From assembly GCA_963837315.1 (NCBI GenBank), contig CAWINE010000005.1, forward strand, positions 189,207 to 253,206: a stretch of DNA of 64,000 nt, written 5' to 3'. Positions 6,392 through 62,571 of the stretch are shown here, in pieces; the stretch's first letter is position 1; each line of letters starts with the position of its first letter. A model generated the notes under the pieces. That model saw only the letters and a program-made list of their open reading frames with translations. It was not told the DNA's origin and ran no database searches. Both the position numbers and the translations under genes were made by a program. This stretch comes from an uncultured Chloroflexia bacterium (GTDB taxonomy: Bacteria > Chloroflexota > Chloroflexia > QHBQ01 > JADMIH01).

Positions 6392-6705
6392 ATCTCCCCT
6401 ATCAGCTAGCAGCTATCAGCTGTTGGTCGACCTTCGTCCTTCGTCCTTCGTCCTTCGTCCACTGACCCCTGACCCCCATTATAGATGGGCGTAGCATCTG
6501 GGACAATGCAGGCCTCCAGATGTGTGTCTTGTAACCTTCGCCGTATGTCTAAATAGCCTTCCCGCAAGCCAACGACCCTGCCGAACGCCCAGAGGCCGCA
6601 GGTTGGGGCAAGTAGTGCCATGTACCGAGGTACCGAGTTCAAGTGACTGTTACTCGTTACTTCTTTTTATGTTAGTGCCTGATAGGGCAGCAAAGGAATA
6701 ATCTT

Positions 6706-6936
6706 ATGGTGGCAAGAATAGATTGGCTCAATAATTGCATTGATAGAATGCTTGCGGGAAAGAGGCCGTCTACACCTGAGCAATGGGGTGTAAAGGACTG
6801 TATAATGAGCAAGGATGTCGATCTACTCAGGCAGGCGGCCCAGCTCGCCAGCTTGCGCCCGGGAGCATCGGAGCCTGACCCGCTTTTCATCTCGCAAGCT
6901 CGAACGCGGATGCTTGCTGAGGCAGCAAGCGAGTAG
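6706..6936 (+). CDS. hypothetical small protein
   Basis: 76-aa ORF with no recognisable motif. Confidence 0.25.
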   Translation: MVARIDWLNNCIDRMLAGKRPSTPEQWGVKDCIMSKDVDLLRQAAQLASLRPGASEPDPLFISQARTRMLAEAASE

Positions 6937-7034
6937 TAGAATCCCGTGAGAATATTTGAGATCACTCAGGAGGAAATCACTTTTGGTTAATTCCAGGAAC
7001 AGGTTCGTACGTTTTGGTCTTATGATACGTATTA

Positions 7035-7475
7035 ATGGGCATACTCGGCTGGGGCCTCGCCGCGTGCGGTGGGGATACCTCAACAGCCACGCCGCAACAG
7101 TCGGCCACTACTCTCGCGGTGCCAGGAGCTACTGACACTACCGGCGCTACACCAGGAGCAATGAACACTCCAGGCGCCGGCGGCTCTGCAGGCGAACAAG
7201 AAGTTGACATCACTCTTCAGGAGTTTTCGATCACTCCGGCGCAAGTTACAGTCAATGCAGGCAAAGTACGATTTGTTGTAACGAACAAGGGCACTCTAAG
7301 CCATAACTTCACCATAACAACCGATTCGGGCACCCTGGCTGCCACCCCAACTTTCGCAGCCAGCGACAGCCCCCAGGTACTGGAAGTAGACCTGAAAGCC
7401 GGCACCTACCAGACACTCTGCAGCGTCCCCGGCCACGCTCAGCACGGGCAAAGGGGCATGATTACTGTGAAGTAG
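7035..7475 (+). CDS. cupredoxin (plastocyanin/azurin-like type-1 copper) lipoprotein
   Basis: 'MGILGWGLAACGG' is a lipobox. A Thr/Ala/Gly-rich linker follows. Copper ligands are 'HNF...C..PGH...GM' (His, Cys, His, Met). Confidence 0.7.
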   Translation: MGILGWGLAACGGDTSTATPQQSATTLAVPGATDTTGATPGAMNTPGAGGSAGEQEVDITLQEFSITPAQVTVNAGKVRFVVTNKGTLSHNFTITTDSGTLAATPTFAASDSPQVLEVDLKAGTYQTLCSVPGHAQHGQRGMITVK

Positions 7476-7629
7476 GGGACGTAGTTGTCAGTTGTCAGTT
7501 GTCAGTTGTCAGTAGACTCAGTGACCAGTGACCAGTGACCGGTGACCGGTGAGGGTAAGCAGTAAGCAGTAAGCAGTTACAAGCGGGCTACTGACAACTG
7601 ACAACTGACCAACTCGCGTATAATATCCC

Positions 7630-10582: not shown

Positions 10583-10772
10583 AATGGTATAGTGGGCAGT
10601 GGGCAGTGGGCAGTTGCCCATAACCAGCAAAACATAAACCCCTAATAACCTCTGTGATCTCTGTGCCCTCCTGATCCTGTGATTTAAAACAATAAAAACC
10701 TTGGCGTCTTGGCGTTGAAAACCTCGTCCCTCAACCGACAACTGACAACTGACAACTACGTAGGAGGCCCTT

Positions 10773-11132: not shown

Positions 11133-11151
11133 GAATTTAGACTACCAGACA

Positions 11152-11208
11152 AAAAGAAGAGATGGGGTTGGACGCAGGCAAACCCCATCTCTTCTTTTTG
11201 TCTGGTAA
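11152..11208. terminator. hairpin terminator between the HIT gene and the minus-strand region
   Basis: 'aagaagagatggggtt...aaccccatctcttctt' is a perfect 16-bp inverted repeat followed by T-rich sequence. Confidence 0.5.
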
Positions 11209-11405
11209 TCAACTGCCCGCCTTGCGATTGACAATTTGAACAACCTTCGTGTAACATTCCAGAAATCAGGTGCGGCGTTCACAGTGCGGGTCTATAAGGA
11301 CCTTTGTTGAGCGTGCGCCTGGCATGACGACCGGCGACTGGCGACCGACGATGGCTGCGGTCTACTGACAACTGACAACTGACAACTACGGTACGACACA
11401 TAACT

Positions 11406-13430: not shown

Positions 13431-13537
13431 GACGAATTACGAATTACGAATTACGAATTACGAATTGCAGATTATCCTTTCCAGTATATAATTGACCCAG
13501 ACCCGATAATTCGTAATTCGTAATTGCTGGAGTCGCT

Positions 13538-13861
13538 ATGGACGTGCTGACGAGGAACTGGCTGAGAATCCTGATATGGGCGGTGGTTCTGGGCGTGATC
13601 GCTACCTTCATCGCTGATTGGGGTGAGTGGGACCGCTTTCTGCTCAACTTGCTCTGGCGGATATTGATAACGGCCGCGGGGGGCGTGGTCGGGTTGCTGC
13701 TGAATTTTTTCGCGGGCAACTATGTAGGCATGGGCACCAACGTTATCGAGAGCATGGGTATTGTCAAGTTCAGCAACGACACACAGAGGAAGATAGAAAA
13801 CTCCTTCATCTTTGTCGGCGCGCTGGTTGCCGCCATTGCGGCGGCGATTTTTATTCGCTAG
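13538..13861 (+). CDS. hypothetical small membrane protein
   Basis: 107 aa with 3 predicted TM helices. Confidence 0.35.
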   Translation: MDVLTRNWLRILIWAVVLGVIATFIADWGEWDRFLLNLLWRILITAAGGVVGLLLNFFAGNYVGMGTNVIESMGIVKFSNDTQRKIENSFIFVGALVAAIAAAIFIR

Positions 13862-13877
13862 TGTAGAATCAGGACAC

Positions 13878-14100
13878 CTGATAGGGAAAGAGGGGTGTAG
13901 CGGTGCTCCCCTGGCGGGGGTTTGGGGGTGTCGCCACATCTCTCGATACTCTAAGTTGGGAACGGGTGCAGGGGCTCCCTGCCGGGGCTGGGGGTGTCCC
14001 CCATAAGTCTCCACTCCCTAAGTTGGAAGGGGGTGCAGGGGAGCGCCCCTGCAGGGGGTTTGGGGGTGTCCCCCAAATCTCTCTATTCCCTGACAGGTGG
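13878..14100. repeat. three tandem copies of a GC-rich double-hairpin REP-like element of about 70 bp
   Basis: The unit is 'gtgcaggggNNNcccctgc(c/a)ggggNtttgggggtgtcccccaNatctc...', containing two palindromes (ctgcagggg/cccctgcag and ttgggggtgtcccccaa). The same family occurs inverted at 23395..23460 and 25795..25920. Confidence 0.7.
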
Positions 14101-15224: not shown

Positions 15225-15227
15225 GGA

Positions 15228-16014: not shown

Positions 16015-16572
16015 CTACAGCGCCTCTGCGCGCTCCCCTTCGTCCAGGGAAAGCCCCACCAACGGCAGCACCTCGCGCAGGTCGGTGATATCGGTGCCGA
16101 ACCGGGAAAATCCGGCACCTAAAGCGGCGTACTGCCCGCGATAAATGTGGTAAGGGTCGTCATCTACGAGCATGGCGTCGCCAGGCTCGATATTATGGCT
16201 GTCCGCACGGGCTTGAGCCAGCATCTTTAGCAGCATTCTGTCCTTGCCGGTGTGCCACTCAGCCACGATGTAATCGACCAGGGGCAGAATCGCGAACGCA
16301 TCGAGGATGCGCCGCACATTCCCTTCGTGGTTGTAGCTAATCACTCCAACCAGTATCCCATGAGCACGCAGGGTTTCCATCACGCCACGCGCTTCGGGAC
16401 GGAGGGCAAAGAGCGGCCCATCGTCGCGCTGCGCGATAAGTGGGTCTTGCGGTGAAGCCTTGAACGTGTAGCGGGGCCACCCGACCGCGTCCGTAGGGGT
16501 GCGGTCGGAGAGATTTACGACGTTCAAGGGCGTCCAGAGAGTATCGTCGCCGTCAAATGCTACGAGCTTCAT
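16015..16572 (-). CDS. HAD-superfamily phosphatase (MDP-1-like)
   Basis: 'MKLVAFDGDDTLW' is HAD motif I. 'MLVDDD' is present later. Confidence 0.65.
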   Translation of the reverse strand: MKLVAFDGDDTLWTPLNVVNLSDRTPTDAVGWPRYTFKASPQDPLIAQRDDGPLFALRPEARGVMETLRAHGILVGVISYNHEGNVRRILDAFAILPLVDYIVAEWHTGKDRMLLKMLAQARADSHNIEPGDAMLVDDDPYHIYRGQYAALGAGFSRFGTDITDLREVLPLVGLSLDEGERAEAL

Positions 16573-16704
16573 AGGTATTATCGAAGCGAGGGGTTGCAGG
16601 GTGCTCGCAACCTCGTTGGCTTCGTTTATTTTTGCTGCTGGTGAATGCCCACAGATCCCTGACAACCGTTTGGAAAGTAAGGGCAGAGTGGGTCGGGGCG
16701 GGGT

Positions 16705-16998: not shown

Positions 16999-17269
16999 GC
17001 GGTAAGCGTTATCCTCTTTTGATTCTTACAATAAAATAGCCGAGGCAGCATCCTCGGCCCCGGCTGACACCCTTAGCGAGCGACCCATTTTACGGGCGCA
17101 CTCCACATAAATAGTATCTTGAGATTATGAGAGGGAACCATAAGCTCTCTACTCTAGCTCATGCACGGGGCGAAATCACAATGCTACACGTAAAGTATAC
17201 ACCTTGCACGCATAAAATACAATACGGCGGATGATGTAGCAGGGTCTATGCAAAGTCAGTGCCTGGCGT

Positions 17270-17600
17270 GCACTCTTGCCTTTGTCATTCTGATGCGAAG
17301 CGAATAATCTCGTCGTTATAGATGATCTTGGCTTTGCACAATCCCAAGAGTATACGAGAGGGACGAGATTATTCACTTCGCTCAGTGCAATACCAAGTAA
17401 ATTGTTGGAGGAAAGAGTGCCAAGTAAGCTTTGTCATTCCGAGTGTAGCGAGGAATCACTATGGGCAGTAATATGCCTGGATCCAACCACCACCTCCCCC
17501 ACAGTGATTCCTCACTTCGTTCGGAATGACAAAAGAGAGGACGCGCTCTTATCTCCAATAATTTAGTTGGCACAGCACTCAGAATGACAAGGCGTAGTTG
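17270..17600. repeat. nested inverted-repeat (MITE-like) structure in the infA / LmbE divergent intergenic region
   Basis: The motif TTGTCATTC(C/T)GAG occurs 3 times forward (17280, 17430) and 2 times reverse (17527, 17583). Hairpin A spans 17280..17390 and hairpin B 17425..17540, each with an imperfect stem of about 30 bp. A third 13-bp hairpin lies at 17628..17680. Confidence 0.6.
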
Positions 17601-17743
17601 GGTGCCCCTTCCATGGTTCTTTCTCGACTTTGCGTCAGCCCTGATGCCTTCGCACTACGCACTATGACATCAGGGCTGACGCACTTGAAAATAGTTGCTA
17701 AACTGGTTATGTTACGCACTATGCACTACTAAAGGGGGTAAAC

Positions 17744-18463
17744 GTGACTGACAATGATTCGGGCAGGTTGTCCGCGTTCGAGGGGGTCGAGCGGGCTATA
17801 GTTGTGTGCGCACATGCCGACGATATGGAAACCATGATGGGGGGCACCGCCTGGCTCCTGCATGTAAAGGGCGTCCGGTTATACGAGCTGATATGCACCT
17901 CCGGCGACCTGGGCACGCACGATCCGGCTTATACGCGAGAAAGCCTGGCCGCCACTCGGGCCAAAGAAGCGCGGGATGGAGGGGCTGTGCTCGGTTTCGA
18001 TGAGGTAGTATCGCTGGAGTACCATGACGGCGAGCTTGAGCCGTCGCTGGAGCTTCGCGCAATAATAGCGCATTACTATCGCAGGTGGCAGCCCGATGCC
18101 CTCTTCACCTTCGACCCTTCGTGGGCAGGGCAGATTCACGCCGATCACCGCGCTTCGGGCCGTGCGGCGGTGGACGCGCTTATGCCGTCGCGCATGGAGC
18201 TGTACCACCCCGAGCAGTTGGCCGATAGCCAGGTAGGCAAGGTGAGCAAGGTGTTCCTGTTTGGCCCCGCTGCGGCCACCATCCAGGTAGATATCACCGA
18301 TATCTACGATAAGAAGTTGGAAGCCGGCATGGCGCACAAGAGCCAGTTCCCTGATGGAGAAAAGAACCTCGACTGGATGCGCGCTCTCGATGGGCAGGCC
18401 GCCGCCGAAGCTGGGCTCGCAGGGCGACTGGCCGAGCGCTTCGCGGAAATAAGGCTCTGGTGA
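17744..18463 (+). CDS. PIG-L/LmbE-family N-acetylglucosaminyl deacetylase (MshB/BshB-like)
   Basis: 'AIVVCAHADDMETMMGGT' and 'HADHRASGRA' match the LmbE family. Start codon is GTG. Confidence 0.8.
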   Translation: MTDNDSGRLSAFEGVERAIVVCAHADDMETMMGGTAWLLHVKGVRLYELICTSGDLGTHDPAYTRESLAATRAKEARDGGAVLGFDEVVSLEYHDGELEPSLELRAIIAHYYRRWQPDALFTFDPSWAGQIHADHRASGRAAVDALMPSRMELYHPEQLADSQVGKVSKVFLFGPAAATIQVDITDIYDKKLEAGMAHKSQFPDGEKNLDWMRALDGQAAAEAGLAGRLAERFAEIRLW

Positions 18464-19525
18464 GTGTGGAGAGTGGTGTGCGCAAAGTTGTAGACCGGCT
18501 CTGGGGTGAGATCGAGTTCGGACACCCGGCGCTTGAGGAGCTAGCCGAGTCGGAGCCTGTACAGAGACTGCGTGGAATTGCCCTGGCCGGGGCGAGCCAA
18601 TATCTCTTTCCGGACCGGCGGCCAATAACGCGCTACGAGCACAGCCTGGGCGTAATGCACATTCTAAGCATGCTCGGGGCCGGCCTTGAAGAGCAAGTGG
18701 CGGGATTACTCCACGACATTCCGCACACCGCCTTTTCGCATACCGTAGATATCGTCTTTCCGAACAACGAATATAACTACCACGAGCGATTCCAGCGCGA
18801 AATCGTTATGAGCTCCACAATACCGGACATCCTTGCCCGGCATGGCATTGACCAGAAAGCAGCGCTCGAACCCGATAGCTTTCCGCTTCTGGAAAAGCCT
18901 CTCCCCAATATATGCGCCGACCGCATCGACTATGCCCTGCGCGACCTGCGTCGCGCGGACATGGTGACCGCTGAAGAGGCTGCCGGATTTCTGGAGCGTT
19001 TTGTTCCGGCACCCGATGGTCTACTGGTAGCAGACATAGAGACAGCACTCAGGTTCAGCCGACTCTTCCTGGAAGCAAACGACAGAATTCTGGACCGGAC
19101 CGGTAGAGGCAGGCGCTTATTGGGCGCTCGCCGGGGCGATAAGGCGCGCATATACGACCGGTGATTTCAGCGACAGAGACCTCTTCTCCACCGATGAAGA
19201 GGCCATGCGAAAGCTTCGCTCCCTCGACGACAGGCTCGTCCAGGCGTATCTTGTGCTCCTAGAACCAGGCACCATCTTCTACGAGGCAAAAACAGCCGGG
19301 CCATCCTTCACCACCCATATGAAGCAACGTGTCATAGACCCACTGGTAAAAGAGCCTGCCTGGGACCAGGCACTCAGGCTCTCACAAATATCGGACGAAT
19401 ACGCACAACAGCTACGGAGCAGAGGTAACGGCCGGAGCACAGAATATCGCCTCTGGTCGTCGCGCATCACAAGCGATATCGAGAGGTTGCTTGAGGGCGA
19501 TCTGGACGTAAAACGTGAAACGTAA
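18460..19525 (+). CDS. HD-domain phosphohydrolase with an apparent frameshift near 19105
   Basis: 'RYEHSLGV...AGLLHDIPHTAFSH' is the HD motif. The C-terminus continues in the frame of ORF 19205..19525 ('YWALAGAIRRAYTTGDFSDRDLFSTDEEAMRKL'). It overlaps the LmbE gene by 4 nt. Confidence 0.7.
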
Positions 19526-19790
19526 AACGTGAAACGTAACCGCCAAGACGCCAAGATCCGCCAAGGTCCGCCAAGGTTTTTATTGTTTAAGACCAAAAGA
19601 ATCCTCTGTGAGTCTCTGTGATTCAAACCCATAATACCCTTCGTGCTCTTCGTGCTCTTCGTGCTCTTCGTGTTTAAAACCCATAAAACCTTTGTGATCT
19701 TTGTGCCTTTGTGGTTCAAACCGTAGAATCCCTGGCGGATATTGGCGGATCTTAGCGGTGAAACAAAAAGATCGTCTATCAGTGGTGGTG
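19497..19790. repeat. composite STR element (exemplar): ACGTRAA x4, CGCCAAG x4, CTCTGTG x2, CTTCGTGCT x4, CTTTGTG x3 and TTGGCGGAT x3 arrays separated by conserved linkers
   Basis: Read directly from the sequence. The same module order recurs at 35215..35470, 47630..47880, 30016..30190, 28998..29085, 33655..33790 and 38560..38660 (inverted), with partial copies at 10585..10765 and 32690..32880. Confidence 0.8.
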
Positions 19791-22338: not shown

Positions 22339-22396
22339 CTTCTGAGTTCTGAGTTTTAGTTTCAACTCAGAACTCAGAACCCGGAACTAAAAAATT
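22339..22396. terminator. hairpin terminator (TCTGAGT x2 ... ACTCAGA x2) followed by an A-rich run
   Basis: 'cttctgagttctgagttttagtttcaactcagaactcagaa' forms the stem. Confidence 0.5.
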
Positions 22397-22398: not shown

Positions 22399-22414
22399 CG
22401 GCACAACTCCTGCT
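22399..22414 (+). promoter_or_regulatory. candidate sigma-54 (-24/-12) promoter upstream of the REC-GGDEF gene
   Basis: 'GGCACaactccTGCt' has GG at 22400-01 and GC at 22412-13 with consensus spacing (TGGCAC-N5-TTGC, one mismatch), about 57 nt upstream of the 22471 start. rpoN and an NtrC-type activator are adjacent. Confidence 0.4.
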
Positions 22415-47564: not shown

Positions 47565-48077
47565 CCGCCAGGGGCACGCTTGCCCTGACCCAAAACGCCC
47601 TCAGGCCCGTGGAGCGAAAGCGGGTAACCTGAGGACGGAAACGTGAAACGTGAAACGTAAGACGTAACCGCCAAGACGCCAAGTTCCGCCAAGGTCGCCA
47701 AGATTATTCAAGATTATTATTGTTTTGACCGTAAAATACCATTAGCGAAGCGAACTCTTGTCACTAAATTCTCTGTGATTTAAAACCACAAAACCTTCGT
47801 GATCTTTGTGCTCTTAGTGTCTTTGTGGTTCAAATCGTAAAAACCTTGGCATCTTGGCGTCTTGGCGTTGAAAAATAAGTAGTAAGCAGTAGAAGCATGA
47901 CACTGGACCAGTCTTCGAGGGCAACAGAAGGGCGTAGGGAAGTGCGTAGTATACCCCGTGTAGCGGGCGGCCACGCGCCTATGGCCGAGCCTGAGCCTGA
48001 CGCGGCTGAGAACGGCGTGGCGGCTGTCACCCGCATTCTCAGCCCGGAGGAAGCCGTCGCCATAGCCCGCTCGTCCC

Positions 48078-49574: not shown

Positions 49575-49712
49575 TTGCGGACCGTCCAATTGCGGATTGC
49601 GGATTGCGGATTAAAGTATGACCACTGACGACCAAAGAAATCAGAATACAGACCAGAGCGAATTGGAGCCGGTCAATCCGCAATCCGCAATCCGCAATCC
49701 GCAATCTAACAC
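49575..49712. repeat. inverted heptamer arrays TTGCGGA x3 ... TCCGCAA x4 forming a potential long hairpin in the moaC leader / 5' end
   Basis: Read directly. The moaC reading frame stays open back through the TCCGCAA array. Confidence 0.7.
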
Positions 49713-50170: not shown

Positions 50171-50399
50171 CCCGTTGCATAATCCAGCCCAACCCCAGCA
50201 CGATCAAGGGACGTCATAGAGGAATAAGCGTGCCCGTGAAGCAAGGGCGAAACTGCGTCCTTGCTTCACGGGCGCGGACCCGCGCTGCCAGGTCATGGGC
50301 GCCCCTGCAGGGCGGCAGCCGCCAAATGGGGCACAGGTTTGCTTGTCGCTGTGTCCTCGAAATGGGCACAGTCGCCCACCGCGTAGACGTTCGCTTTGC

Positions 50400-52743
50400 T
50401 CACTTCTTGTCCCCCTGTTCCGTGTCCGCTTCACGCGATGTCTGTACGTTCCGACTTCCCTGCCTGCTCTGGGGTGGAGTGTGCTTCACCTGGACGTCCA
50501 GCCCACCGTCCGCTCGCGTAACTTCTACCTCGATATCATCGCCATGGCGGACAAAGCGGAGGTCGGCGCTGCCTTTGCCAACCTGAAGGCCGCATACCTC
50601 AAGGCTGTCGACCATGTTCGGGAGGGAGGGGTGGCCCACGATTAGACTGTTGTTGAATCCATCCGGCTCAAAGCCCAGCATAGTAGTTACCATATAAGGC
50701 ACCGAACCAGCCGCCCAGGCCTGAGGGTGGCAGGCGACCGGATAATGCACCGGCACGCCAAATCGCTTGCGCTCGAAACCGGCGAACAACTCCGGGAGAC
50801 GGTAATGGTTGAAGCGCATGGCCGCATCCACGATCCCGTTGCATACTTTGGCCGCTTCTTCAACGGCACCATGTCGCCTGAACCCCGCTGCGATTATTGA
50901 GTTGTCATGCGGCCACACGGTGCCCAGGTGATAGGCTATAGGATTGAAGCGCCTGGCTTTTGATGTCAGCGTACGGATGCCCCACCCGCTGTACATTTCG
51001 TCTGACATCAACTGCTCGACCGTACGCGCTGCCTTGTCCCGGTCGCAGATGCCTGTCCAAATGCGCCTGTCCGGGATTGGAAGAGAGCACAGCGCATGGT
51101 TCTCCGCCCTTTTGCAACGCCAGCGCGTAGAAGCCATCTTTGTCCAGCCAGAAGTCTCGGTTGAAGCGCTCTTTCAGGTCGGCAGCCTCCTTCTCCAGTT
51201 GGGCAGCTCTTTTCTCGTCACCGGCTCGCCTGTAAAGGTTGGCTATTTCACGTTTGGCGTAGTAAGCATAACCTTGCACCTCCACGAGTGCTATGGGGGG
51301 CCGGGCCAGGCTGCCGTCGGCGTTGACTATGGCATCGCCCGAGTTTTTCCAGCCCTGGTTTGCGAGGCCCCCTCATCCTTGGTCCCCCGAGCGCTCTCGT
51401 AGTCTATGTAGCCATCGCCATCCGTATCGCCGTAGTCGCGCATCCAGTTGAGTGCCTGTTCGATGTTATCCTTGAGATCGGTGAATATCCGCTTGTCGCC
51501 GGTCCATTTAGTGTATTCGCCCATTAGGACCAGAAAGAGGAGGGTCGCATCGATGCTACCGTAGTAGGGCGACTGAGGTATCTCGTTCAGGCGGGCCATC
51601 TCTCCAACACGTAACTCGTGTAATATCTTGCCCGGTTGCTCGTCCCGATAGTCATCCACCTTCGTGCCCTGATACTTCGCAAGGAGGCGCAAGGTCTGCT
51701 CGGCAATGGACGGACGAAAAGCCAGGGTTTGCAGGGCGGTGATCAGGCTGTCGCGCCCGAAGAGAGTGCCGAACCAGGGCAGGCCCGCGGCAAAGAAGTT
51801 TTCCTCGTCAAGACAACTTCTCAAGACATGGAGGTCGCGCAGCGAGCGGTCGAGGACATTATTCACAAGGAGAGAGTCGGTAGTTACAGAGGTCTGGTCG
51901 CTCAGCCACTTATCGGCTGACTTATCGAATTGTTTGGTAGCTCCTTTAACATCAGGGTGGAACCTCGTCTTTGGTCGGGCATCCTCTTTCTTCTCCGTCT
52001 CGGCCAGGACTACCGAAATAAGGAGTTGTTTGCGCTCCCTCGCTTTCAGGCTGATGTCGAAGTGGGCTGTCTCATCATGTGTGGCCCTGGGTTGCTCCGA
52101 GAAGATAGATCGAGACGCTCCTATAAAGGCCGTCCGCGCCATCATACGCAAAGGTGAGCGCATCGCCTTCCCATTTGCTCGGGTGCAGCTTGCCCAGCTT
52201 CTTAGGTAACAGCCCGCGCACGTCGAATATGTCCTCGAACTCGGCGCGAAATCGGAAGGAGAGCGGGAAAGATGCGGGTTCTTCGCTGTAGTTTTCGAAG
52301 GTAAGCAAGTCGCTCAACATAAGCTTTTCGTTGTCGAGCATGCGCTCCCACTCGATCCCTATCTTCTCCTTTTCAATGAGAGTGCCATCTTGCATGTGCA
52401 GGTCAGGGTTGGTCAGCTCAAAGACCGACATGTAGCCCCGCTCGGCGCTTGCCACCAGACTGCTTGGGCGCACGCCGGCAATTTTCATTTCGAAGCCGTT
52501 CAGGTAGCGGCAGTCGTGGTAATAGAGGCCGTAGCCATGTCCCTCGCTCATCGGCACTCGCCCGTCGGGTAACGTTAGAAAGAAAATGTCGCCTTCCTTG
52601 ATGACAATAGCGTCCGATATGTTGCGCACAACCGAAGGCGTGCCCTGGGTAAGCACACGCTGCTTACGCTCGCTCTTCTGCTGGGGCGTCATCTCATGCT
52701 TCTTACTGTTTTCTGATTGAGCTACGTGGTCTGTTTGCTGCAT
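50400..52743 (-). pseudogene. glycogen-debranching / amylo-alpha-1,6-glucosidase family protein (GDE_N + GDE_C) split into 4 frames
   Basis: The N-terminal domain is 'IKEGDIFFLTLPDGRVPMSEGHGYGLYYHDCRYL' (52075..52743). The GDE_C domain is 'FAAGLPWFGTLFGRDSLITAL' (51327..52163). The C-terminus 'MYSGWGIRTLTSKARRFNPIAYHLGTVWPHDNS' is at 50400..51137. Confidence 0.7.
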
Positions 52744-53299
52744 TACTTCTATCTCCTATAGCGAGTACCAGGTACCACTCTCATTTCTCATTTCTCATTT
52801 CTTCGTGAAGCGAGACCCTGTCCCTGGGCTAAGTCCTTCAGTAAGACATACGCAAGGTGCAGGCCATTGCGCCCGCCCCTTTCAGAGGACTGGGCCTGCA
52901 CTTGCAGGCGATGATCTATTTCCCATGCGATGTACAAGTGTGGGTGATGTAGAAGCGTGGCGCTCATGTACCCGCACCGGTCTCCTTCACGTTCTGCTGC
53001 CGGTTGGATTCGGTGTTGCCTCCCATTTGTGGGCTCTGCTCATGGTGAGGGTTCAAACCTGTGCCGTGCGAAGTTGTGCGTCCGGCGCGCTGCGCCCAAC
53101 TGAGAGAATCGCCCGCCGGATGGAGCCACGACCGCACCCACCAGCCGGCTACCGCCCGTACTTCCGGCCACCGGCCCACCAGGCCCCTGGTTTCACCTTT
53201 CGATGGTCCTGCCATGTCGTTCCTCCAATTACGAATTACGAATTACGAATTACGAATTCCGATTCATACGTAATTCGTGTAATTCGTAATTCCTTAGCG

Positions 53300-56867: not shown

Positions 56868-56989
56868 CGTTGTCTTCTCCAAGAAGTGAGAAGTGAGAAG
56901 TGAGAAATGAGAAATGAGATGTGAGATCGTCGACCCTGATTCCATTTCTCTTCGTCGACCTCTCACTTCTCATTTCTCATTTCTCATTT

Positions 56990-58130
56990 CTATAAAACCC
57001 GATACGGCGCGGCGTCCTGCCGCTTTAACTCGAGACCCATCCCCGGTCGAGAAAGGTCAGGGCGCAGCTCGCCATCCACCGGGTCGAGCGCACCGTCGAA
57101 GATCATATGCTCGATGCGAGCGTGGTCGTGGAAGTATTCGAGGTGCCGCAGCTTGGGCACAGAGCAGCAAGGGTGAACGTGGATAGAGGGCCCGCAGTGA
57201 GCAGATAGCGGTATAGGACGTGCCTCGCACAGCGCGCCCACTTTGAGGAAGCCGCTTATCCCCAGGCAGCGGGTAGCGTCCGCCTGTAGCACGTCCACCG
57301 CCTCCGCATCCAACATGCGCCGGAAGTAGAAAGGGTCATATCCATACTCACCTGCCGCAATGTCTATGCCTGCAGGCGCTCGGTCCCGGAGGAGACGCAA
57401 ACCTTCCAGGTCGTCCGAGGAGACCGGTTCCTCGAACCAGGTCACTCCCTGTGCTGCGAACGCCTCCGCGAAGGCTAATGCCTGCTTGCGGCTGTATGCG
57501 CCGTTGGCGTCCACGAAAAGCTCAACGTGAGGGCCGATTGCCTGCGCGGGCCGCCTTCACCCTCTCGAGGTCGATGGATGGGTCGGTGCCGATCTTCATC
57601 TTCACCCGCTTGAACCCCTGCTCGGCCCAGCCTCCCAGTTGGTCGCGCATCTGTTCTGGAGTGTAAGTGGTGAAGCCGCCGCTGCCGTAGAGTGGCACCG
57701 AGGTGCGCACGGCACCCAGGAGCGTCACCAATGGCAGGCCGAGGAGGCGGGCTTTGAGGTCCCAAAGGGCAGAGTCGACTGCCGAGATAGCCATGGCCGC
57801 GACCCCAGGGCGGCCCAGGTTGCGAATGGAACCCAGCATCGCGTCCCATGCGCCCGGTACCGCCATGGCATCGTGGCCACCAAGGAGGGTAGGAAAATTG
57901 TCAAGGATAAGCTGTGCAGTGGCGCGGTTTGCGTAGGTATAGCCGAGGCCGGTCATGTCTCCCGCGCTGACCTCCGCCACGACGATAGTGCTGTTGTGCC
58001 AGAGGTATGTGCCGTCGCCCTCCGGCGCATCGGTCGGTATCGTGTAAGCCGAAGCTCGCACCGATTCTATAGGAACGTCAATCACGGTCGCTTCTCGCGA
58101 GTTATGAGTTCTCATTATCTCCTGTCTCAT
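56990..58130 (-). CDS. enolase-superfamily enzyme (mandelate racemase / muconate lactonizing enzyme family) with an apparent frameshift near 57520
   Basis: The N-terminal capping domain and 'KMKIG' lie in 57522..58130. The C-terminal barrel ('DANGAYS', 'WFEEP', 'DIAAGE') lies in 56990..57514. Confidence 0.7.
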
Positions 58131-58165
58131 TTCTCATTTCTCCGCCACTCAGAACTCATGACCGG

Positions 58166-59920
58166 TCAGATAACCTCCCGCACCTTGTCTTCGAGCACGG
58201 TCTTTATGATGTCGAAGCGGTCCTTCTCACCCCTTGCCAGGGCTTTCGCGAAGTGGATCGCCTGCTCCGTGGTGATCTTGCCGGGCATCGGAGGCTCGTT
58301 GGCGTCCACGACTGCCTGTATGAGGGCAGGGCCGTCGTGCGCGAGGGCCTCACGCAATATACCCTCGGCGTCGTTCGGGTCCTCTATCGTGTAGCCCGCA
58401 GCGCCGCAAGCCTTCGCATACGCCGCGAAATCGATAGGCTGCAACTCCACACCGTACTGAGGGTTGGCGTTGAGCACCATCTGCTCCCATTTGATCATGC
58501 CGAGCACGTTGTTCTTGATGACCACCACCTTCACAGGCAGCTTGTATTTGACCAGCGTAGCCATCTCGCCCATCAGCATGGTGAAGCCGCCGTCCCCCAC
58601 GATACACACCACCTGCCTGCCCGGGTTGCCAATCGCCGCGCCGATGCTGTACGGGAGGCCATTGGCCATGGTAGCCAGCGAGCCTGAAAGCGAGAACTGC
58701 ATATTGCCGCGTATCTGGATGTAGCGCGCCGCCCATGTGGCGATCGTGCCGCTGTCTGCCGAAACGATGGCGTCGTCGTTCAAGAGCTTGTTCAGTTGGT
58801 AAGTGACCACCTGCGGCTTCATCGGCATGTCGGTGCGGGTACCCCGCTCCTCCATCAAGCCATTCCAATCCTTCATCCGCTCCTGTGCCTTCTTCAAGAA
58901 ATCTCGATTTACTTTACGCTCGATGAGTGGCAGAAGCGCCTGGAGCACACCCTTGCAGTCGCCCACCAGGCCAACGTCGACGGAGTGGCGCAGCCCTATC
59001 CTCTCGGGGAAGAGGTCGATCTGCACCGTCTTCGCCTTGTCGGGATCGGGGTAGAACTCCATATACGGGAAGCTACTGCCCGCAATGAGCAAAGCATCGC
59101 AGTCGTCCATAGCGTCCTGGGAAGGCGCTGTGCCGAGGAGGCCAATGCCACCAGTGGTGTAAGGGCTATCGTCGGGCACCACCGCTTTGCCGAGCAGCGG
59201 CTTGATGATGACCCCACCCACCTTCTCGGCTAGCTGCGTGATCTCGTCCCTTGCGCCCAGGCAGCCGCGCCCGGCCAGGATCGCCAGCTTAGAGCTACCG
59301 TTGATGAGGTCGGCGGCGCGCTGCACGGATTCCCTGGATGGGAGAGGACGCGGCATAGAGTAGATGTCCTCGCTGTGCATCGCCACGTTGGCAGGCGAGC
59401 GGTCTTCGTCGTCTTTGGTCCATTCCTGTATGTCTTTAGGAATGGTGATGTGAGCCACGCCGTGCCGCGCTAATGCGGTCTTGATCGCCTCATCCACTAC
59501 ATTGTTGGTGTGCGCCGGCCCCATGATGCGCTGGTTATATACCGACACGTCCATGAAGAGCTTGTCGAGGTCGACATCCTGCTGGTAGTGGGTGCCGATC
59601 AGGTCGTGGAAGGTGTGCCCGGTTATGGCGAGCACCGGCTGCATATCGCACTTGGCGTCGTACAGCCCGTTGAGGAGGTGGATACCGCCCGGCCCTGAAG
59701 TTGCCAGGCAGACGCCAAGTCTGCCTGTATATTTGGCATAGCCTACGGCAGCGAAAGCAGCCGCTTCCTCGTGCCGCACCTGCACAAACTTCAGCTTGCC
59801 CTCGTTCGTACGCAATGCCTCGAAGATGCCGTTCACACCGTCTCCGGGGAAGCCGAATATCGTGTCAACTCCCCAGCTAATGAGCCGCTCGACCAGCAGG
59901 TCAGCTACCGTTTTTGCCAT
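58166..59920 (-). CDS. thiamine-diphosphate-dependent pyruvate oxidase / pyruvate dehydrogenase (quinone) family enzyme
   Basis: 'TIFGFPGDGVNG' is at the N-terminus. The TPP-binding motif is 'GDGGFTMLMGE...N'. The protein is 584 aa. Confidence 0.8.
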   Translation of the reverse strand: MAKTVADLLVERLISWGVDTIFGFPGDGVNGIFEALRTNEGKLKFVQVRHEEAAAFAAVGYAKYTGRLGVCLATSGPGGIHLLNGLYDAKCDMQPVLAITGHTFHDLIGTHYQQDVDLDKLFMDVSVYNQRIMGPAHTNNVVDEAIKTALARHGVAHITIPKDIQEWTKDDEDRSPANVAMHSEDIYSMPRPLPSRESVQRAADLINGSSKLAILAGRGCLGARDEITQLAEKVGGVIIKPLLGKAVVPDDSPYTTGGIGLLGTAPSQDAMDDCDALLIAGSSFPYMEFYPDPDKAKTVQIDLFPERIGLRHSVDVGLVGDCKGVLQALLPLIERKVNRDFLKKAQERMKDWNGLMEERGTRTDMPMKPQVVTYQLNKLLNDDAIVSADSGTIATWAARYIQIRGNMQFSLSGSLATMANGLPYSIGAAIGNPGRQVVCIVGDGGFTMLMGEMATLVKYKLPVKVVVIKNNVLGMIKWEQMVLNANPQYGVELQPIDFAAYAKACGAAGYTIEDPNDAEGILREALAHDGPALIQAVVDANEPPMPGKITTEQAIHFAKALARGEKDRFDIIKTVLEDKVREVI

Positions 59921-60045
59921 CTTCTTTTACCCCCACTGTTGCTTGTCCATCTTGTTGGCCATGCGAGCCCGGTCCGGAAATGGGTATTGACAACAGGTCC
60001 GCTATTACCCTATAGTTGTAAGCATATATCGTACCACGACGTAAA

Positions 60046-60573
60046 TTGGGGGACGAGAAGATGATAGGAGACAATCTAACAATCGAGGATTACCAGGCGC
60101 TGGCCGAGTTCAGGTACCAACTGCGCCGCTTTATCGGCTTCAGCGAGCAGATGGCGCGCTCGGCCGGCATAGAGCCGCAGCAACACCAGTTGCTCCTGGC
60201 GCTCAAGGGCTTCCCAGGAGGCGGACCTGCCACGATGAGTGGCCTGGCGGAAAGGCTGAGCTTGCGACACCACAGCGCCGTGGAGCTGGTCAACCGTACG
60301 GAAGAGCGAGGGTTTGTGCGCAGGAGGCGAGCCGAGGAAGACCGCAGAGAGGTTTACATCGATCTGACCGACGAAGGCGAACAGGTACTCCGCGAGCTTT
60401 CACTCTATAATCGCGCCGAGCTGCGTAATCAGGGTCCCGCCCTTGTGAACGCACTCAAAGGCCTGCTGAAGGAAAGCCGGCACTTGGAACGTAGCAAGCC
60501 GGTTCTTGACCGGTTCTGCGTTGAAAGTAATGACTCAGAAGTCACAACTCACAACTCAAAACAAGGAGAGTAA
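60046..60573 (+). CDS. MarR-family transcriptional regulator
   Basis: The winged HTH is 'QHQLLLALKGFPGGGPATMSGLAERLSLRHHSAVELVNRTEERGFVRRR'. Confidence 0.75.
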   Translation: MGDEKMIGDNLTIEDYQALAEFRYQLRRFIGFSEQMARSAGIEPQQHQLLLALKGFPGGGPATMSGLAERLSLRHHSAVELVNRTEERGFVRRRRAEEDRREVYIDLTDEGEQVLRELSLYNRAELRNQGPALVNALKGLLKESRHLERSKPVLDRFCVESNDSEVTTHNSKQGE

Positions 60574-60730
60574 GCGCAATATATGAAAGGGATAGACGGA
60601 GACGAAGACAATTACATCAAAAGAGCTCTCAAAGGGCTGAGATCGAATTGCACACCCTGGCGAGTCGGACAGCCTGGGTGACTTCATAACTACAGCCCGC
60701 GTCATACCGATTTCGCTTATCGCCATAGGC

Positions 60731-62479
60731 GTGGGAGTCATCAGCTCGTTCGTGGCGCTGGTTCTGTTGAGGCTGATAGGGCTCTGCACCAACCTTTTCT
60801 TCTTCCAGCGCTTTGATACCACGCTGGTTTCTCCCGCAGGCAATAACCTGGGCATCTTCGAGATATTGGTGCCGGTGATAGGAGCGATCGCAATAGGCTT
60901 CATGGCCCGTTATGGCTCGGAGAGGATACGGGGACACGGCATCCCGGAAGCAATCGAAGCGATATTAATCAACGGGAGCAAGGTGCAGCCGCGAGTGGCT
61001 ATCCTGAAGCCTATAGCCTCAGCCATTTCGATAGGTTCGGGCGGGCCGTTTGGTGCGGAGGGGCCAATCATCATGACGGGTGGGGCGTTCGGCTCAATGA
61101 TCGCCCAGCTCTTCCACCTGACGAGCGCCGAGCGCAAGACGCTGCTCGTGGCAGGTGCTGCCGCCGGTATGTCCGCTACCTTCGCCTCGCCGGTGGCAGC
61201 AGTGCTCCTGGCGGTGGAGCTTCTCCTCTTCGAGTGGCGGCCACGCAGTGTGATACCTGTGGCCCTCGCCAGCGCCACAGCCGCTGCCACCCGCCAATAT
61301 ATCCTCGGCACGGGCCCCCTTTTCCCGACGCCCGCCCACCCGATCTTTATCGGTCCTCTGGGTCTCCTTAGCTGTATAGTTGTCGGATTGCTTGCGGGGG
61401 CGCTGTCGGCGTTGCTCACCCTGATGGTATATGCTTCGGAAGATGCTTTTCACAAGCTGCGTATACACTGGATGTGGTGGCCGGCAATAGGCGGACTTGT
61501 GATCGGCATCGGCGGCCTCATTTTCCCGCAGGCGCTCGGCGTTGGCTACGACACTATCGGCGCGCTCTTGCAGGGGAACGTGCCGGCCCAAATCGTCCTT
61601 GGCATCCTCCTGGTGAAGTCGATAATCTGGGCCGTATCGCTCGGCTCGGGCACATCGGGGGGCGTGCTGGCTCCGCTCCTGATGATGGGCGGGGCGCTGG
61701 GTGGGTTGGAAGCGCTAGTGCTTCCCAACGAAGGAGCGGGCTTTTGGCCGCTGGTGAGCATGGGAGCGATTCTTGGCGGCACTATGCGCTCTCCTTTTAC
61801 GGGCATCGTGTTCGCCCTCGAGTTGACGCACGACGTGAATATGCTTCTACCGCTGGTGGTGGCGGTGTTCGTAGCCCACGGCTTCACGGTTCTCACGCTA
61901 CGCCGTTCCATCCTGACTGAAAAAGTGGCCCGGCGCGGGTATCACTTGAGCCGAGAATATGCCGTGGACCCTCTGGAGATACTGAAGGTGCGTGAGGTGA
62001 TGAGGACCAACATAGCCGCCCTCCCCGCCGCCACCTCCATCTCAAATCTCGCGAACGTTACCGTTGACACGCCGAAGCGAGGCCAGCACCTGATACCGGT
62101 GCTGGACCAGGATGATCTCATGGTCGGTGTGGTGACTCGGAGGGATCTTCAACGCTTGCTGCAGGAAGCCCAGGCCGTGCCTCCGGATGGTTATGAGAAG
62201 GACCGGAAGCTTGCCGACCTCGTAAAATCCAACCCCCATATTGCCTACGACGACGAGCCACTGCGCGCGGTGGTTTACAGGATGGCTGAGACGGGCCTGA
62301 CCCGCTTCCCCGTGGTAGAGCGGCGTAACCCACGTAAGATTGTGGGCATGGTCTCTCTGAACGACCTGCTGAAAGCAAGGGAGCGCAACCTCGAGGAGGA
62401 GCGCGAACGCGAGCGGGTGCTCAAGGTGCGCTTCTTCAGGCCCACAAGCTCAACCATAGAAATGAGAAGTGAGAAATGA
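60731..62479 (+). CDS. ClC-family chloride channel / H+-Cl- antiporter with a C-terminal CBS pair
   Basis: 'GSGGPFGAEGP', 'GMSATFASPVAA' and 'GSGTSGGVLAPLL' are the selectivity motifs. Two CBS-like segments follow. Confidence 0.85.
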   Translation: MGVISSFVALVLLRLIGLCTNLFFFQRFDTTLVSPAGNNLGIFEILVPVIGAIAIGFMARYGSERIRGHGIPEAIEAILINGSKVQPRVAILKPIASAISIGSGGPFGAEGPIIMTGGAFGSMIAQLFHLTSAERKTLLVAGAAAGMSATFASPVAAVLLAVELLLFEWRPRSVIPVALASATAAATRQYILGTGPLFPTPAHPIFIGPLGLLSCIVVGLLAGALSALLTLMVYASEDAFHKLRIHWMWWPAIGGLVIGIGGLIFPQALGVGYDTIGALLQGNVPAQIVLGILLVKSIIWAVSLGSGTSGGVLAPLLMMGGALGGLEALVLPNEGAGFWPLVSMGAILGGTMRSPFTGIVFALELTHDVNMLLPLVVAVFVAHGFTVLTLRRSILTEKVARRGYHLSREYAVDPLEILKVREVMRTNIAALPAATSISNLANVTVDTPKRGQHLIPVLDQDDLMVGVVTRRDLQRLLQEAQAVPPDGYEKDRKLADLVKSNPHIAYDDEPLRAVVYRMAETGLTRFPVVERRNPRKIVGMVSLNDLLKARERNLEEERERERVLKVRFFRPTSSTIEMRSEK

Positions 62480-62571
62480 GAAGTGAGAAGTGAGAAGTGA
62501 GAATTGCCTGACCGGTATGGTATTATGAGGTCGGCTCGGTTGGCATAAGAAGCCCTTAGCAGGAGAGGTTC

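Follow-up and report, generated by a model that had tools for sequence, protein, structure and literature searches.

Heptanucleotide arrays build hairpins at gene boundaries in a clade of uncultured Chloroflexota

Arrays in the window

The window analyzed here, the whole of a 64,000-nt stretch of contig CAWINE010000005.1 from an uncultured Chloroflexia bacterium (GCA_963837315.1), carries short tandem arrays, mostly of 7-nt units, in many of the spacers between its genes. It encodes RpoN (24270-25751) and an NtrC-type activator, together with, among others, cupredoxin, HIT, MscS-like, TPR, M78 peptidase, MoaA, sugar-transferase and pyruvate oxidase genes. The arrays build clade-specific hairpins at gene boundaries, in part as members of dispersed families, and the position of a hairpin is kept while its units turn over. 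Several arrays are modules of a larger element of about 230 nt, called the composite below. For comparison we used relatives L081 (GCA_936418845.1, RpoN 92% identical), whose 21 kb are syntenic with about 14.5-33.7 kb of the window, L095 (GCA_039932335.1, 76%) and L099 (ENA ERZ25039577, 80%). An earlier note on this DNA had described a high-GC, rpoN-containing genome; rpoN is there, and the GC content is corrected to 57.6%.

Tandem Repeats Finder (TRF) output for the window comprised 85 rows; once overlaps were removed, the arrays numbered 41 at period 7, 6 at period 8, 10 at period 9 and 6 at period 10. Counting only exact arrays of at least three copies, the window holds 23 of period 7 (630 nt), one each of periods 9 and 10, and none of periods 4-6, 8, 11 or 12. 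Against these 23, not a single period-7 array arose when the window was simulated fifty times under a second-order Markov model. All 22 array loci named in the earlier note contain a TRF array, the four cases in which the note saw one motif reused at distant loci are correct, and TRF adds arrays at 1104-1140, 44343-44374 and 60533-60562. Across the window and three relatives (114 kb), 80 of 139 TRF arrays have period 7, or 0.70 per kb; 80 unrelated genomes (1.31 Mb) have 0.07 per kb, with periods 9, 12 and 6 as their main classes. This background consists of loci found through the pyruvate-oxidase-like gene (58166-59920), whose best genome matches are 79% identical and scattered over Acidobacteriota, Gemmatimonadota and Chloroflexota, making it a poor guide to relatives. 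By the definition of long simple sequence repeats (LSSRs), tandem units of 5-11 nt exceeding chance in their genome, the arrays belong to that category. We conclude that the observation is real: the arrays are far above chance, dominated by 7-nt units and non-coding.

Gene positions were taken from codon statistics and corrected by Pfam matches, ribosome-binding sites and the gene calls of the syntenic relative; calls outside 14-36 kb are our own. On this map all but two arrays lie in spacers or touch just a stop codon or the start of a mis-extended open reading frame (ORF), in agreement with the claim that they are essentially confined to non-coding DNA. Apparent coding overlaps are explained by over-extended ORFs, with true starts at 35103 and 41788. 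The further claim that nearly every intergenic region has an array was too strong, as 22 of the 47 spacers of at least 80 nt (47%) do: 17 of 26 spacers between co-directional genes, 4 of 11 between divergent genes and 1 of 10 between convergent ones. Elements hug the upstream gene, with 13 of 16 starting no more than 15 nt from its stop codon and five overlapping it. Stop codons fall inside the arrays at 28996, 30015, 56991 and 62458, and also at 19506 once the split HD-domain gene is joined as in L081. The 3' arm typically ends 10-33 nt ahead of the next start codon, leaving room for a ribosome-binding site or promoter.

The array loci are as follows, with strand where one was assigned, copy numbers after each unit, z relative to dinucleotide shuffles, and E values from nhmmer.

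1104-1140: (TTCGGAA/TGCGGAA) x5 array, in a region of poor gene calls (TRF and sequence)
6399-6476: (CTATCAG)3.3, (TCGTCCT)4.9 and (CTGACCC)2.1, adjacent, with no inverted partner (TRF)
7483-7614: hairpin with arms (AGTTGTC)4.4 and (ACTGACA)3.4, of which 22 nt are 100% complementary, and a loop of (CAGTGAC)4.9 and (GTAAGCA)3.3; 8 nt past the cupredoxin gene stop and 16 nt before an ATG at 7630 (-62.9 kcal/mol, z -4.8)
10591-10757, plus strand: (AGTGGGC)3.4, a partial composite at 10636-10721 (CTCTGTGAT units, spacer, CTTGGCGT x2) and (CAACTGA)3.7, which stops 15 nt short of the ATG of the HIT gene (TRF; E=3e-16)
11328-11387, plus strand: (CGACCGG)3.4 and (ACTGACA)3.4; the MscS-like gene has both in its 5' region, and a plain hairpin of 30 bp (11140-11210) and a promoter-like site precede them (TRF)
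13432-13525: hairpin (ACGAATT)5 ... (AATTCGT)2.7 with the boundaries of 53227-53292; 2 nt past a stop and 13 nt before the next ATG, its loop holding a promoter-like TTGCAG-N16-TATAAT (z -3.8)
19506-19767, plus strand: full composite starting within the stop region of the split HD-domain gene, with modules (ACGTRAA)5, (CGCCAAGNN)4, (CTCTGTGAN)2, (CTTCGTGCT)4, (CTTTGTGNN)3 and (TGGCGGATNT)3; ortholog at L081 5309-5536 (E=7.6e-45 and 1.2e-20)
22340-22388: hairpin (TTCTGAG)2.3 ... (AACTCAG)3.6, 2 nt past the NtrC-type gene stop, with a conserved sigma-54-type promoter next; the unit differs on both arms in L081 (z -5.9)
28996-29082: short form of the composite, (ACGTRAR)4 and a perfect 25-nt inverted repeat of CGCCAAGA/CGCAAAGAG 9-mers, arms 100% complementary; overlaps the TPR gene stop, with the conserved TGGTATAAT promoter next (-58.2 kcal/mol, z -9.6)
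30015-30184: hairpin (GCGGAWT)4.7 ... (CAKTCCG)6.3 around a composite left half (CCGCCAAGA...)4, with 36-nt arms 92% complementary; extends from the M78 peptidase stop to 10 nt ahead of the following ATG
31360-31425, plus strand: right-end remnant of the composite and (AATCCGC)2.9, at a distance of 1 nt from the MoaA stop; in L081 the orthologous element is full and measures 330 nt
32455-32882, plus strand: (GTCAGAG)3.1 and a partial composite at 32699-32882, between two minus-strand genes (E=1.1e-28)
33671-33892: hairpin (GATTGCG)4.6 ... (TCCGCAT)5.7 around a composite left half, filling the spacer of two minus-strand genes (TRF, nhmmer)
35204-35486, plus strand: (AGGCAGTG)3 and a full composite in a divergent spacer; gene start corrected to 35103 (E=1.4e-62)
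38569-38667: (TGCTTAC)3, a (CTTGGCG..)4 arm and (AATCCGC)3.4 (TRF, nhmmer)
41798-41864, minus strand: (ACTGACA)6 then (ATTGGTA)3, immediately 5' to the GGGAGG ribosome-binding site of a GNAT gene that starts with GTG at 41788 (TRF)
47638-47879, plus strand: full composite with pairing arms, between two plus-strand genes (E=2.1e-58; -71.6 kcal/mol, z -4.2)
49575-49706: hairpin (ATTGCGG)3.4 ... (CAATCCG)4.7 with 24-nt arms 100% complementary; reaches from the sugar-transferase stop to 33 nt ahead of the moaC ATG (-59.1 kcal/mol, z -8.7)
52779-52802, minus strand: (GAAATGA)3.4, 36 nt upstream of a gene start (TRF)
53227-53292: ACGAATT-family hairpin with the polarity and boundaries of 13432-13525, 7 nt from the GMC oxidoreductase stop (z -4.9)
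56882-56991: hairpin (AGAAGTG)6.4 ... (TCTCATT)4.4, abutting the stop of an enolase-superfamily ORF (-54.7 kcal/mol, z -6.6)
58109-58142, minus strand: (ATGAGAA)4.7, in the gap from the pyruvate oxidase stop to the start that follows (TRF)
60533-60562, plus strand: (ACTCACA)4.3 at the 3' end of a MarR gene (TRF)
62458-62503, plus strand: (AGAAGTG)6.6, with the stop of a CLC channel gene inside the array (TRF)

Several other features of the window were recorded alongside the arrays. Plain palindromes at 37655-37706, 23316-23369, 50229-50276 and 11140-11210 have 21-30-nt arms that are 90-100% complementary and loops of 0-11 nt; they contain internal A-runs and T-runs and no tandem arrays, three lie in convergent spacers and one after the HIT gene, and by sequence all four look like bidirectional terminators. 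About 140 nt beyond a tRNA-Arg(TCT) gene (44130-44204) is a decamer array, (TCCTGGATGT)3.2 (44343-44374), followed by a stem with a T8 run. A 231-nt tandem repeat at 36039-36464 (1.8 copies, 97% identical) duplicates a coding domain within the gene of an SH3-repeat NlpC/P60 cell-wall hydrolase and stands outside the intergenic system. Three genes are split, namely the HD-domain gene (18460-19525, intact in L081), a glycogen-debranching enzyme gene (50400-52743, three pieces) and the enolase-superfamily gene (56990-58130, two pieces), and a DEAD helicase gene is truncated (1994-2722); all four may be pseudogenes or assembly frameshift errors.

Hairpins and the composite element

Many arrays are accompanied by their own reverse complement. 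There are eight clear inverted pairs (7483/7590, 13432/13507, 22340/22364, 30015/30141, 33671/33853, 49589/49674, 53227/53269 and 56882/56961), and same-unit neighbors in direct orientation do not occur within any one spacer, so that all eight same-unit neighbor pairs are inverted. The earlier note had put an array and its reverse complement 30-80 nt apart; the inversion holds, and the spacing is wider, with arms 8-117 nt apart. The arms are 19-36 nt long and 86-100% complementary. The prediction of hairpins with repeat-built stems is supported by seven folded regions with z from -3.8 to -9.6, as stable as which at most one of 200 dinucleotide shuffles proved. The copy numbers of paired arms are usually unequal by one or two units, meaning that the stems are able to pair in several registers. 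A scan of 90-nt minimum free energy after every stop codon did not discriminate these sites, as many array stems span more than 90 nt and coding windows fold almost equally (median -26.6), and we set it aside as uninformative. Rfam 15 returned only the tRNA-Arg at gathering score for the window; its sub-threshold matches are miRNA precursors, that is, generic long hairpins.

The unit vocabulary is small. Fifty-six arrays from the window, L081, L095 and a further locus, L082, reduce to 26 canonical units under rotation and reverse complement, in 14 one-mismatch families, out of about 1,170 possible classes; AACTGAC (10 times) and AATCCGC (9 times) are commonest. Within a family the order of the arms is fixed: GCGGAWT precedes AWTCCGC, ACGAATT precedes AATTCGT and GTTGTCA precedes CAACTGA (about seven informative loci, p ~0.03; our polarity and phase statistics draw on about 7-10 partly dependent loci). 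We dropped an argument from the polarity of GCGGAWT arms relative to transcription, because an inverted pair reads identically on both strands and only the order X...X' versus X'...X is informative. Array boundaries recur as well. (AATCCGC)n nearly always begins at A1 and finishes ...GCAAT(C), and (ACTGACA)n has GTCT on its 5' side and ACT-ACG on its 3' side, both at unrelated loci and in different genomes, while the two ACGAATT hairpins (13432, 53227) share AGG...G flanks around unrelated loops. These recurring boundaries and flanks point to descent from dispersed copies, as opposed to independent slippage from random seeds. The units are not scattered through the rest of the DNA: 16 of 22 CAACTGA occurrences are inside arrays, and the six singletons compare with 6.3 expected. 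Of the seven sense (CAACTGA)n arrays, five end 15-32 nt ahead of a start codon and the others are hairpin arms after stops.

Many of the arrays named by the earlier note are real, and by nhmmer and alignment they prove to be modules of the composite in place of independent microsatellites. Its consensus runs (ACGTRAA)3-5, (CGCCAAGNN)4, an AT-rich spacer, (CTCTGTGAN)2-4, TCAAACCCATAA, (CTTCGTGAT)4, a spacer, (CTTTGTGNN)3, GGTTCAAACCGTAGAA and (CTTGGCGNN)3. Its last module is present in inverted form as the first CGCCAAG block, which lets the element close into a long stem enclosing about 150 nt, and arrays of CTCTGTG, CTTCGTG and CTTTGTG 9-mers lie between the inverted (CGCCAAGNN)4 and (CTTGGCGNN)3 arms. 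A profile built from eight copies was searched against 99 loci (1.56 Mb). It matches the window at nine places, three full (19511, 35222, 47638), two partial (32699, 10636) and four half or short (28995, 30051, 33707, 38587), and L081 five times, with nothing in the other 97 loci (1.5 Mb), L095 included; arrays of the CTTGGCG type alone are present in L095 and L099.

Composite copies, whether orthologous or paralogous, are 77-89% identical over aligned positions, a range that low-complexity alignment somewhat inflates, compared with 69% at the four-fold degenerate sites of seven orthologous genes. Conservation above the neutral level implies constraint or homogenization. RNAalifold on five copies gave 49 pairs, three with compensatory changes, and a positive covariation term; we rejected this as evidence for a selected RNA fold beyond the inverted repeat itself. 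No Rfam family matches the composite. With its paired terminal (CGCCAAGNN)4 and (CTTGGCGNN)3 repeats and its lack of coding capacity, the composite is built like a miniature inverted-repeat transposable element (MITE). We found no flanking direct repeats as target-site duplications at the three full copies, where adjoining arrays blur the ends, and all six L081 composite sites are also occupied in the window, giving no sign of recent transposition. These two results weaken the MITE reading.

Three sequence resemblances were noted within repeat elements. The composite end unit ACGTGAA (window 19506-19539 and 47638-47658; L081 5309-5334 and 18645-18662) is a rotation of GTGAAAC, which we take to be one half of the parS consensus (TGTTTCAC-GTGAAACA); the units are direct repeats and not a palindrome, and the likeness is probably a coincidence once multiple comparisons are allowed for. 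Three repeat elements that differ in other respects have the decamer GCGAAGCGAA in their loops or interiors (window 17295 and 47745; L081 1587). A second dispersed repeat, unrelated to the arrays, has a GC-rich unit of about 67 nt (window 13859-14091 and, inverted, 25790-25935; L081 2960-3150; L095 ~16480-16600); at 13891-14091 it stands in 2.9 tandem copies. Two small stems (GCAGGGG..CCCTGC and GGGGGTGTCCCCC) are part of it, and it has no Rfam match.

Relatives, gene boundaries and phage copies

To place the arrays in a lineage we relied on RpoN. Its closest proteins are 95, 94 and 92% identical, and the named relatives at 50-76% are all metagenome-assembled genomes (MAGs) of Chloroflexota/Chloroflexia. 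Exact arrays occur at 0.36 per kb in the window, 0.37 in L081 and 0.33 in L095, and L099 has seven period-7 arrays in 7 kb. In contrast, L084 (RpoN 71%) has 0.05 per kb, L097 (68%) has none, and the 80 loci of other phyla average 0.015. This distribution defines the trait as one of a clade of roughly genus-to-family depth. Because three independent assemblies of relatives have such arrays at similar density and distant relatives do not, the arrays are neither confined to this contig nor an artefact.

The wider distribution of the DNA motifs is known from viral contigs and the 99 fetched loci. Some units do turn up across phyla: a Blastocatellales MAG has AATCCGC, a Vicinamibacterales MAG has CAGGGAT and three lineages have AATCCAA. 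We take this sharing between phyla as weak evidence, since permuted control heptamers match too (15 and 19 viral stretches, against 34 and 54 for real units) and the loci picked by one unit are without the window's other units. Isolated inverted heptamer pairs at low density are found in L063 and L075 (Chloroflexia MAGs), L079 (Thermoanaerobaculia), L094, L050 (Vicinamibacterales) and L010 (Blastocatellales), for example (GTTCAAA)/(TTTGAAC), (GCAGAAG)/(CTTCTGC), (GATTTTG)/(AATCCAA) and (CAGGGAT)/(GATCCCC). Repeat-built hairpins are thus not unique to the clade; their density and diversity are what is unusual. GenBank phages and PLSDB plasmids gave no match.

Orthologous gene boundaries show how the elements change. 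After the TPR gene stop and before the conserved TGGTATAAT promoter, four lineages have four unrelated hairpins: a plain 20-bp stem in L095, (TTAGGGG)/(CCTAACC) in L099, the 25-nt 9-mer stem in the window and a composite in L081. Lengths vary accordingly, with 270 nt in L081 against a 90-nt perfect hairpin in the window at this boundary, and 330 nt against a 65-nt remnant at the moaA boundary. The NtrC-type boundary has an ordinary GC stem and T-run in L095, (GAGTTCT)n/(AGAACTC)n in the window and (GAGTTAT)n/(ATAACTC)n in L081, so that between the last two one base is changed in every unit of both arms. The L095 terminator stem at this site consists of 1.6 copies of the heptamer that forms the 4.9-copy array at window 6427-6460. 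Arrays decay in some lineages, as in the sig70/rpoN spacer, where L081 is clean and both the window and L082 are degenerate. The convergent DuOB/HAD spacer has a heptamer hairpin in L081 and none in the window, a difference that may be a gain or a loss; the L081 unit, TGATCCC, matches the window's empty-site sequence, stop codon included. We conclude that hairpin position is conserved while copy number and units turn over rapidly.

Two spacers also carry features of their own. Four lineages (window 22400-22414; L081 8235-8249; L082 1250-1264; L095 8197-8211) conserve GGCAC-N5-CTGCT (CACGGCACAACTYCTGCTATA), a promoter-like motif of the sigma-54 type, between the NtrC-type activator and response-regulator/GGDEF genes, next to rpoN, and this suggests a putative sigma-54 regulon in a Chloroflexota lineage. 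The divergent infA/PIG-L spacer (17240-17650) contains several long hairpins, one of them at 17430-17533 with 36-nt arms, and in L081 some 400 nt from it lie elsewhere, in inverted orientation (20047-20252); the segment may be mobile or RNA-coding.

We queried IMG/VR with an exact 16-mer of the composite arm, for which single matches may be chance by a rough estimate made without a control. At least six distinct contigs have the 16-mer as an inverted pair, AACCGCCAAGACGCCAAG ... loop ... CTTGGCGTCTTGGCGGTT. One of them, the genuine phage contig L105 (IMG/VR 3300047160_013159), encodes a portal, major head protein, protease and head-tail adaptor, and comes from the same JGI sample as a relative whose RpoN is 81% identical; it may be a phage of this Chloroflexota clade. 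Its co-directional structural module holds two CGCCAAG hairpins and an inverted pair, (TCAGAAG)4.9/(CTGACTT)4.7, that fills the 100-nt spacer between two structural genes. Another contig, L143, has a fully palindromic nested form with CGCCAAG arrays outside and ATCCTGTGA arrays inside. The L105 elements are given here.

L105 2451-2584, 5077-5152, 8170-8205 and 10208-10342: CGCCAAG-array hairpins and inverted heptamer arrays (IMG/VR contig)

The presence of the same sequence in a phage means that a purely mutational process in the host is insufficient, and that the element spreads or its sequence is used. A full terminator within co-directional structural genes seems unlikely if, as we assume, they are co-transcribed, which favors a role in processing, stability or attenuation over termination.

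Discussion

We tentatively favor a combined explanation, to which we give slightly less than an even chance, in which the elements are hairpins of gene boundaries that grew by slippage, were partly dispersed in the manner of repetitive extragenic palindromic sequences (REP) and bacterial interspersed mosaic elements (BIME), and act on transcripts. Replication slippage would add and remove whole units. Quasi-palindrome correction is a general product of template-switch mutagenesis, and such switching within a strand, or else selection for pairing, would keep the arms complementary and would explain how units change in concert on both of them. A few families, namely the CGCCAAG composite, GTCT-(ACTGACA)n-ACT-ACG and (AATCCGC)nAAT, would have been copied to many loci and into phage in a REP/BIME- or MITE-like way and would no longer be visibly moving. 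On transcripts, the stems could serve as gene-boundary stem-loops, insulating neighboring genes, that damp read-through, block 3'-to-5' exonucleases or offer sites to double-strand RNases, and stem length would be tunable in steps of one unit. The transcript role is the least certain step, drawn from position right after stops and ahead of promoters or ribosome-binding sites, ordinary hairpins at the same sites in relatives and occurrence in phage, and "terminator" would name only one among several possible RNA roles.

A number of observations weigh against this explanation. The GC-rich stem-loop of an intrinsic terminator is present just downstream of the gene and its U-rich tract is absent, as sequences beyond the 3' arms are not T-rich, and a scan of the window for canonical terminators found 21 against 16.6 expected, no enrichment, with none at an array. 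The role on RNA is argued from position and by analogy. Arrays are rarer in convergent spacers, where plain long palindromes sit instead, which is unexpected if any gene-end hairpin could grow arrays. Filling every free base up to the limits of coding sequence is also what unconstrained expansion would produce, and there is just one clean case of concerted change on both arms. Full copies of the composite all lie on the plus strand whatever the strand of the neighboring genes, and a determinant at the level of DNA fits this better than one at the level of mRNA. Finally, unique spacers within the composite, such as GGTTCAAACCGTAGAA, are nearly invariant, and above-neutral conservation in such non-repetitive sequence hints at sequence-specific recognition and not mere pairing.

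In a rival explanation the arrays would have no function and be a by-product of a lineage-specific change in replication or repair, with frequent 7-nt slippage, palindromes made by template switching and some selfish spread. Such arrays would persist where harmless, expanding until they met coding sequence or a ribosome-binding site, and indeed ours abut or overlap stops and end just before ribosome-binding sites. The sharp clade boundary, the unequal copy numbers on paired arms, the decay of arrays in the sig70/rpoN spacer of some lineages and the viral-contig arrays of permuted control heptamers all agree with this, and heptanucleotide LSSRs, according to the account of Mrazek 2007 given in PMC4679880, are the commonest in many bacteria and ascribed to polymerase slippage. 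Mutation on its own sits poorly with a boundary that keeps a hairpin in four lineages with four unrelated sequences, composite copies more conserved than four-fold degenerate sites, a CGCCAAG hairpin in a compact phage genome, and a small vocabulary with fixed array boundaries; moreover, the plain hairpins of convergent spacers have gained no arrays. We regard the by-product explanation as a live possibility, if a somewhat doubtful one. Alternatively, the heptamers and/or the CGCCAAG, CTTCGTG and CTTTGTG 9-mers could be bound by sequence-specific DNA or RNA binders in a regulatory or chromosome-organizing network, an idea also put forward for Beggiatoaceae TAACTGA repeats and Nostoc heptamers. 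The small vocabulary, the fixed polarity and phase of each family, the conservation of the composite and its unique spacers above the neutral rate, an orientation that follows the DNA strand and not gene direction, the 9-10-nt spacing of CGCCAAG units (about one helical turn) and identical arm sequences in phage would all suit a binding protein. So would the placement of sense (CAACTGA)n 15-32 nt before starts in five of seven arrays, parallel to TAACTGA (PMC4679880), and the altered promoter-reporter activity after deletion of Nostoc heptamer repeats (bioRxiv 10.1101/2022.06.06.494920). Yet no gene of the window encodes a candidate protein, at least 26 units would need many binders or a single binder of great tolerance, the units at one site are replaced completely from lineage to lineage, and CAACTGA is not enriched outside arrays (6 vs 6.3); we rate this explanation as unlikely.

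Phase variation is far less probable still. As contingency loci the arrays would switch or grade adjacent genes by gaining and losing units in promoters or 5' untranslated regions, on the model of the heptanucleotide repeats upstream of Haemophilus influenzae hmw1A, and some do lie in 5' regions (10732, 11362, 41798-41864) or carry promoter-like hexamers such as CTGACA-17-TAATAT at 7598-7626; copy number differs between orthologs, in a comparison at the level of species, and control of expression by heptanucleotide simple sequence repeats has precedent, as outlined in PMC8262952 and PMC12721329. The neighbors here, however, are ordinary housekeeping genes and not genes for surface structures or host interaction, most arrays lie just past stop codons and not in promoters, and inverted pairing is not a trait of contingency loci. 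An assembly or sequencing artefact confined to this contig is refuted by the independent assemblies: split genes do suggest frameshift errors, perhaps of a long-read assembly, but the same arrays stand, often at orthologous sites, in GCA_936418845.1, GCA_039932335.1, ENA ERZ25039577 and IMG/VR contigs, and exact multi-copy units with perfect 22-25-nt inverted arms are not an error pattern. A bolder possibility, which we also rate as improbable, is that the hairpins form a sequence-specific code for gene boundaries, common to the host clade and its phages and read by a host DNA or RNA factor. With the same low probability, it would apply foremost to the nested CGCCAAG/CTTGGCG element with its conserved AACCGCC...GGCGGTT base and unique spacers; equally conjecturally, the reader might be a termination, processing or nucleoid protein, for example, and phages would copy the code to plug into host expression. 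If true, such a code would be a previously undescribed class of recognized element and not slippage debris.

How the elements relate to described repeats bears on what is new about them. Heptamers of the cyanobacterial short tandemly repeated repetitive (STRR) type were reportedly described by Mazel et al. in 1990 and are mentioned in PMC4692102, and the units of STRR1-3 are said to be CCCCAGT, TTGGTCA and CAACAGT. The likeness to them that the earlier note saw is genuine, in that both have 7-nt tandem units in few copies and few families over many intergenic loci. Membership does not follow: the host is a chloroflexotan of higher GC, the inverted pairs are systematic, the composite contains 8-10-nt arrays, and the STRR1-3 units, in whatever rotation or strand, are missing from the 26 units, the nearest of which differ by at least one base. 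A literature search on STRR unit strings gave chance matches only. A further parallel is the intergenic structure reported for nif regions, in which sequence varies and the fold is kept.

LSSRs of 5-11 nt, for which heptanucleotides are the commonest, intergenic and phylogenetically patchy class and slippage has been proposed (Mrazek 2007, as reported in PMC4679880), are a statistical category without architecture; here there are hairpin pairing, fixed boundaries, turnover at conserved sites and a dispersed composite. TAACTGA direct repeats are found in marine Beggiatoaceae, in cyanobacteria and in some Bacteroidetes, for the most part right ahead of starts (MacGregor 2015, PMC4679880), and in BOGUAY one unit dominates, inverted repeats are almost absent (1 of 170) and the arrays stop about 1 nt short of the start codon (PMC4679880). 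CAACTGA, the commonest unit of our window, is one base away, in arrays of 2-6 copies, with five of its seven sense arrays upstream of starts and no excess outside arrays; our window differs in having many units, common inverted pairs and ends 15-32 nt upstream, with room for a Shine-Dalgarno sequence, and its TRF output contains no TAACTGA arrays. GGGAATC in Xanthomonas and GGGGAYT in Nostoc form intergenic heptamer arrays, some of them inverted stem-loops, between the same genes in related species and with extensive variation in length and sequence (Rehm et al. 2015, PMC4692102); those units are G-rich, quadruplex-forming and of one family per genome, whereas the units here are not G-tracts. 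Within the phylum, satellites derived from (GATAGRA)n are scattered in Chloroflexus aurantiacus (Subirana and Messeguer 2019, PMC6749651), as a single satellite family with no hairpin or composite described, and GATAGRA is absent here.

By analogy, the elements would work most like REP/BIME, with which they have in common that they are extragenic, high-copy hairpins and mosaic modules at gene boundaries. Proposed roles of REP/BIME are mRNA stability and attenuation. They differ in that a REP is a unique 20-35-nt palindrome and the arms here are tandem 7-10-nt arrays, no RAYT gene is found among the window's genes, and arrays are depleted in convergent spacers, not enriched. REP, BIME and REPIN have been characterized as extragenic, high-copy and hairpin-forming, REPINs being inverted doublets with variable spacers (Bertels and Rainey 2011, PMC3116915). 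The composite resembles a MITE in its length (about 230-270 nt), non-coding and multi-copy nature and inverted arms of about 45 nt, and departs from one in lacking target-site duplication and any presence/absence difference from L081 (six of six sites) and in its internal tandem arrays. Like intrinsic terminators, the stem-loops come right after a stop and before the next promoter, and L095 has a canonical stem and T-run at one orthologous site; unlike them, they have no U-tract, stems of 20-36 bp and loops of up to about 100 nt, and occur in a phage structural block as well. Since defining features of STRR, REP/REPIN, MITE and intrinsic terminators each fail, the elements are a distinct variant and not a member of these classes. 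Heptamer arrays as a kind were known; what is new is the systematic inverted arrays of many families and the nested 7-10-nt composite shared with a phage.

For work on Chloroflexota, the arrays affect the assembly of MAGs, gene calling, because stop codons lie inside arrays, and terminator prediction. Heptanucleotide repeats, known in cyanobacteria since 1990, still pose questions of origin and function (PMC4679880, PMC4692102, bioRxiv 10.1101/2022.06.06.494920). This clade is a natural experiment, combining several unit families, site-conserved hairpins with sequence turnover, a conserved composite and phage copies, features that separate the need for a hairpin at a site from the need for a particular sequence and from slippage alone, and that can be put to the test without culture.

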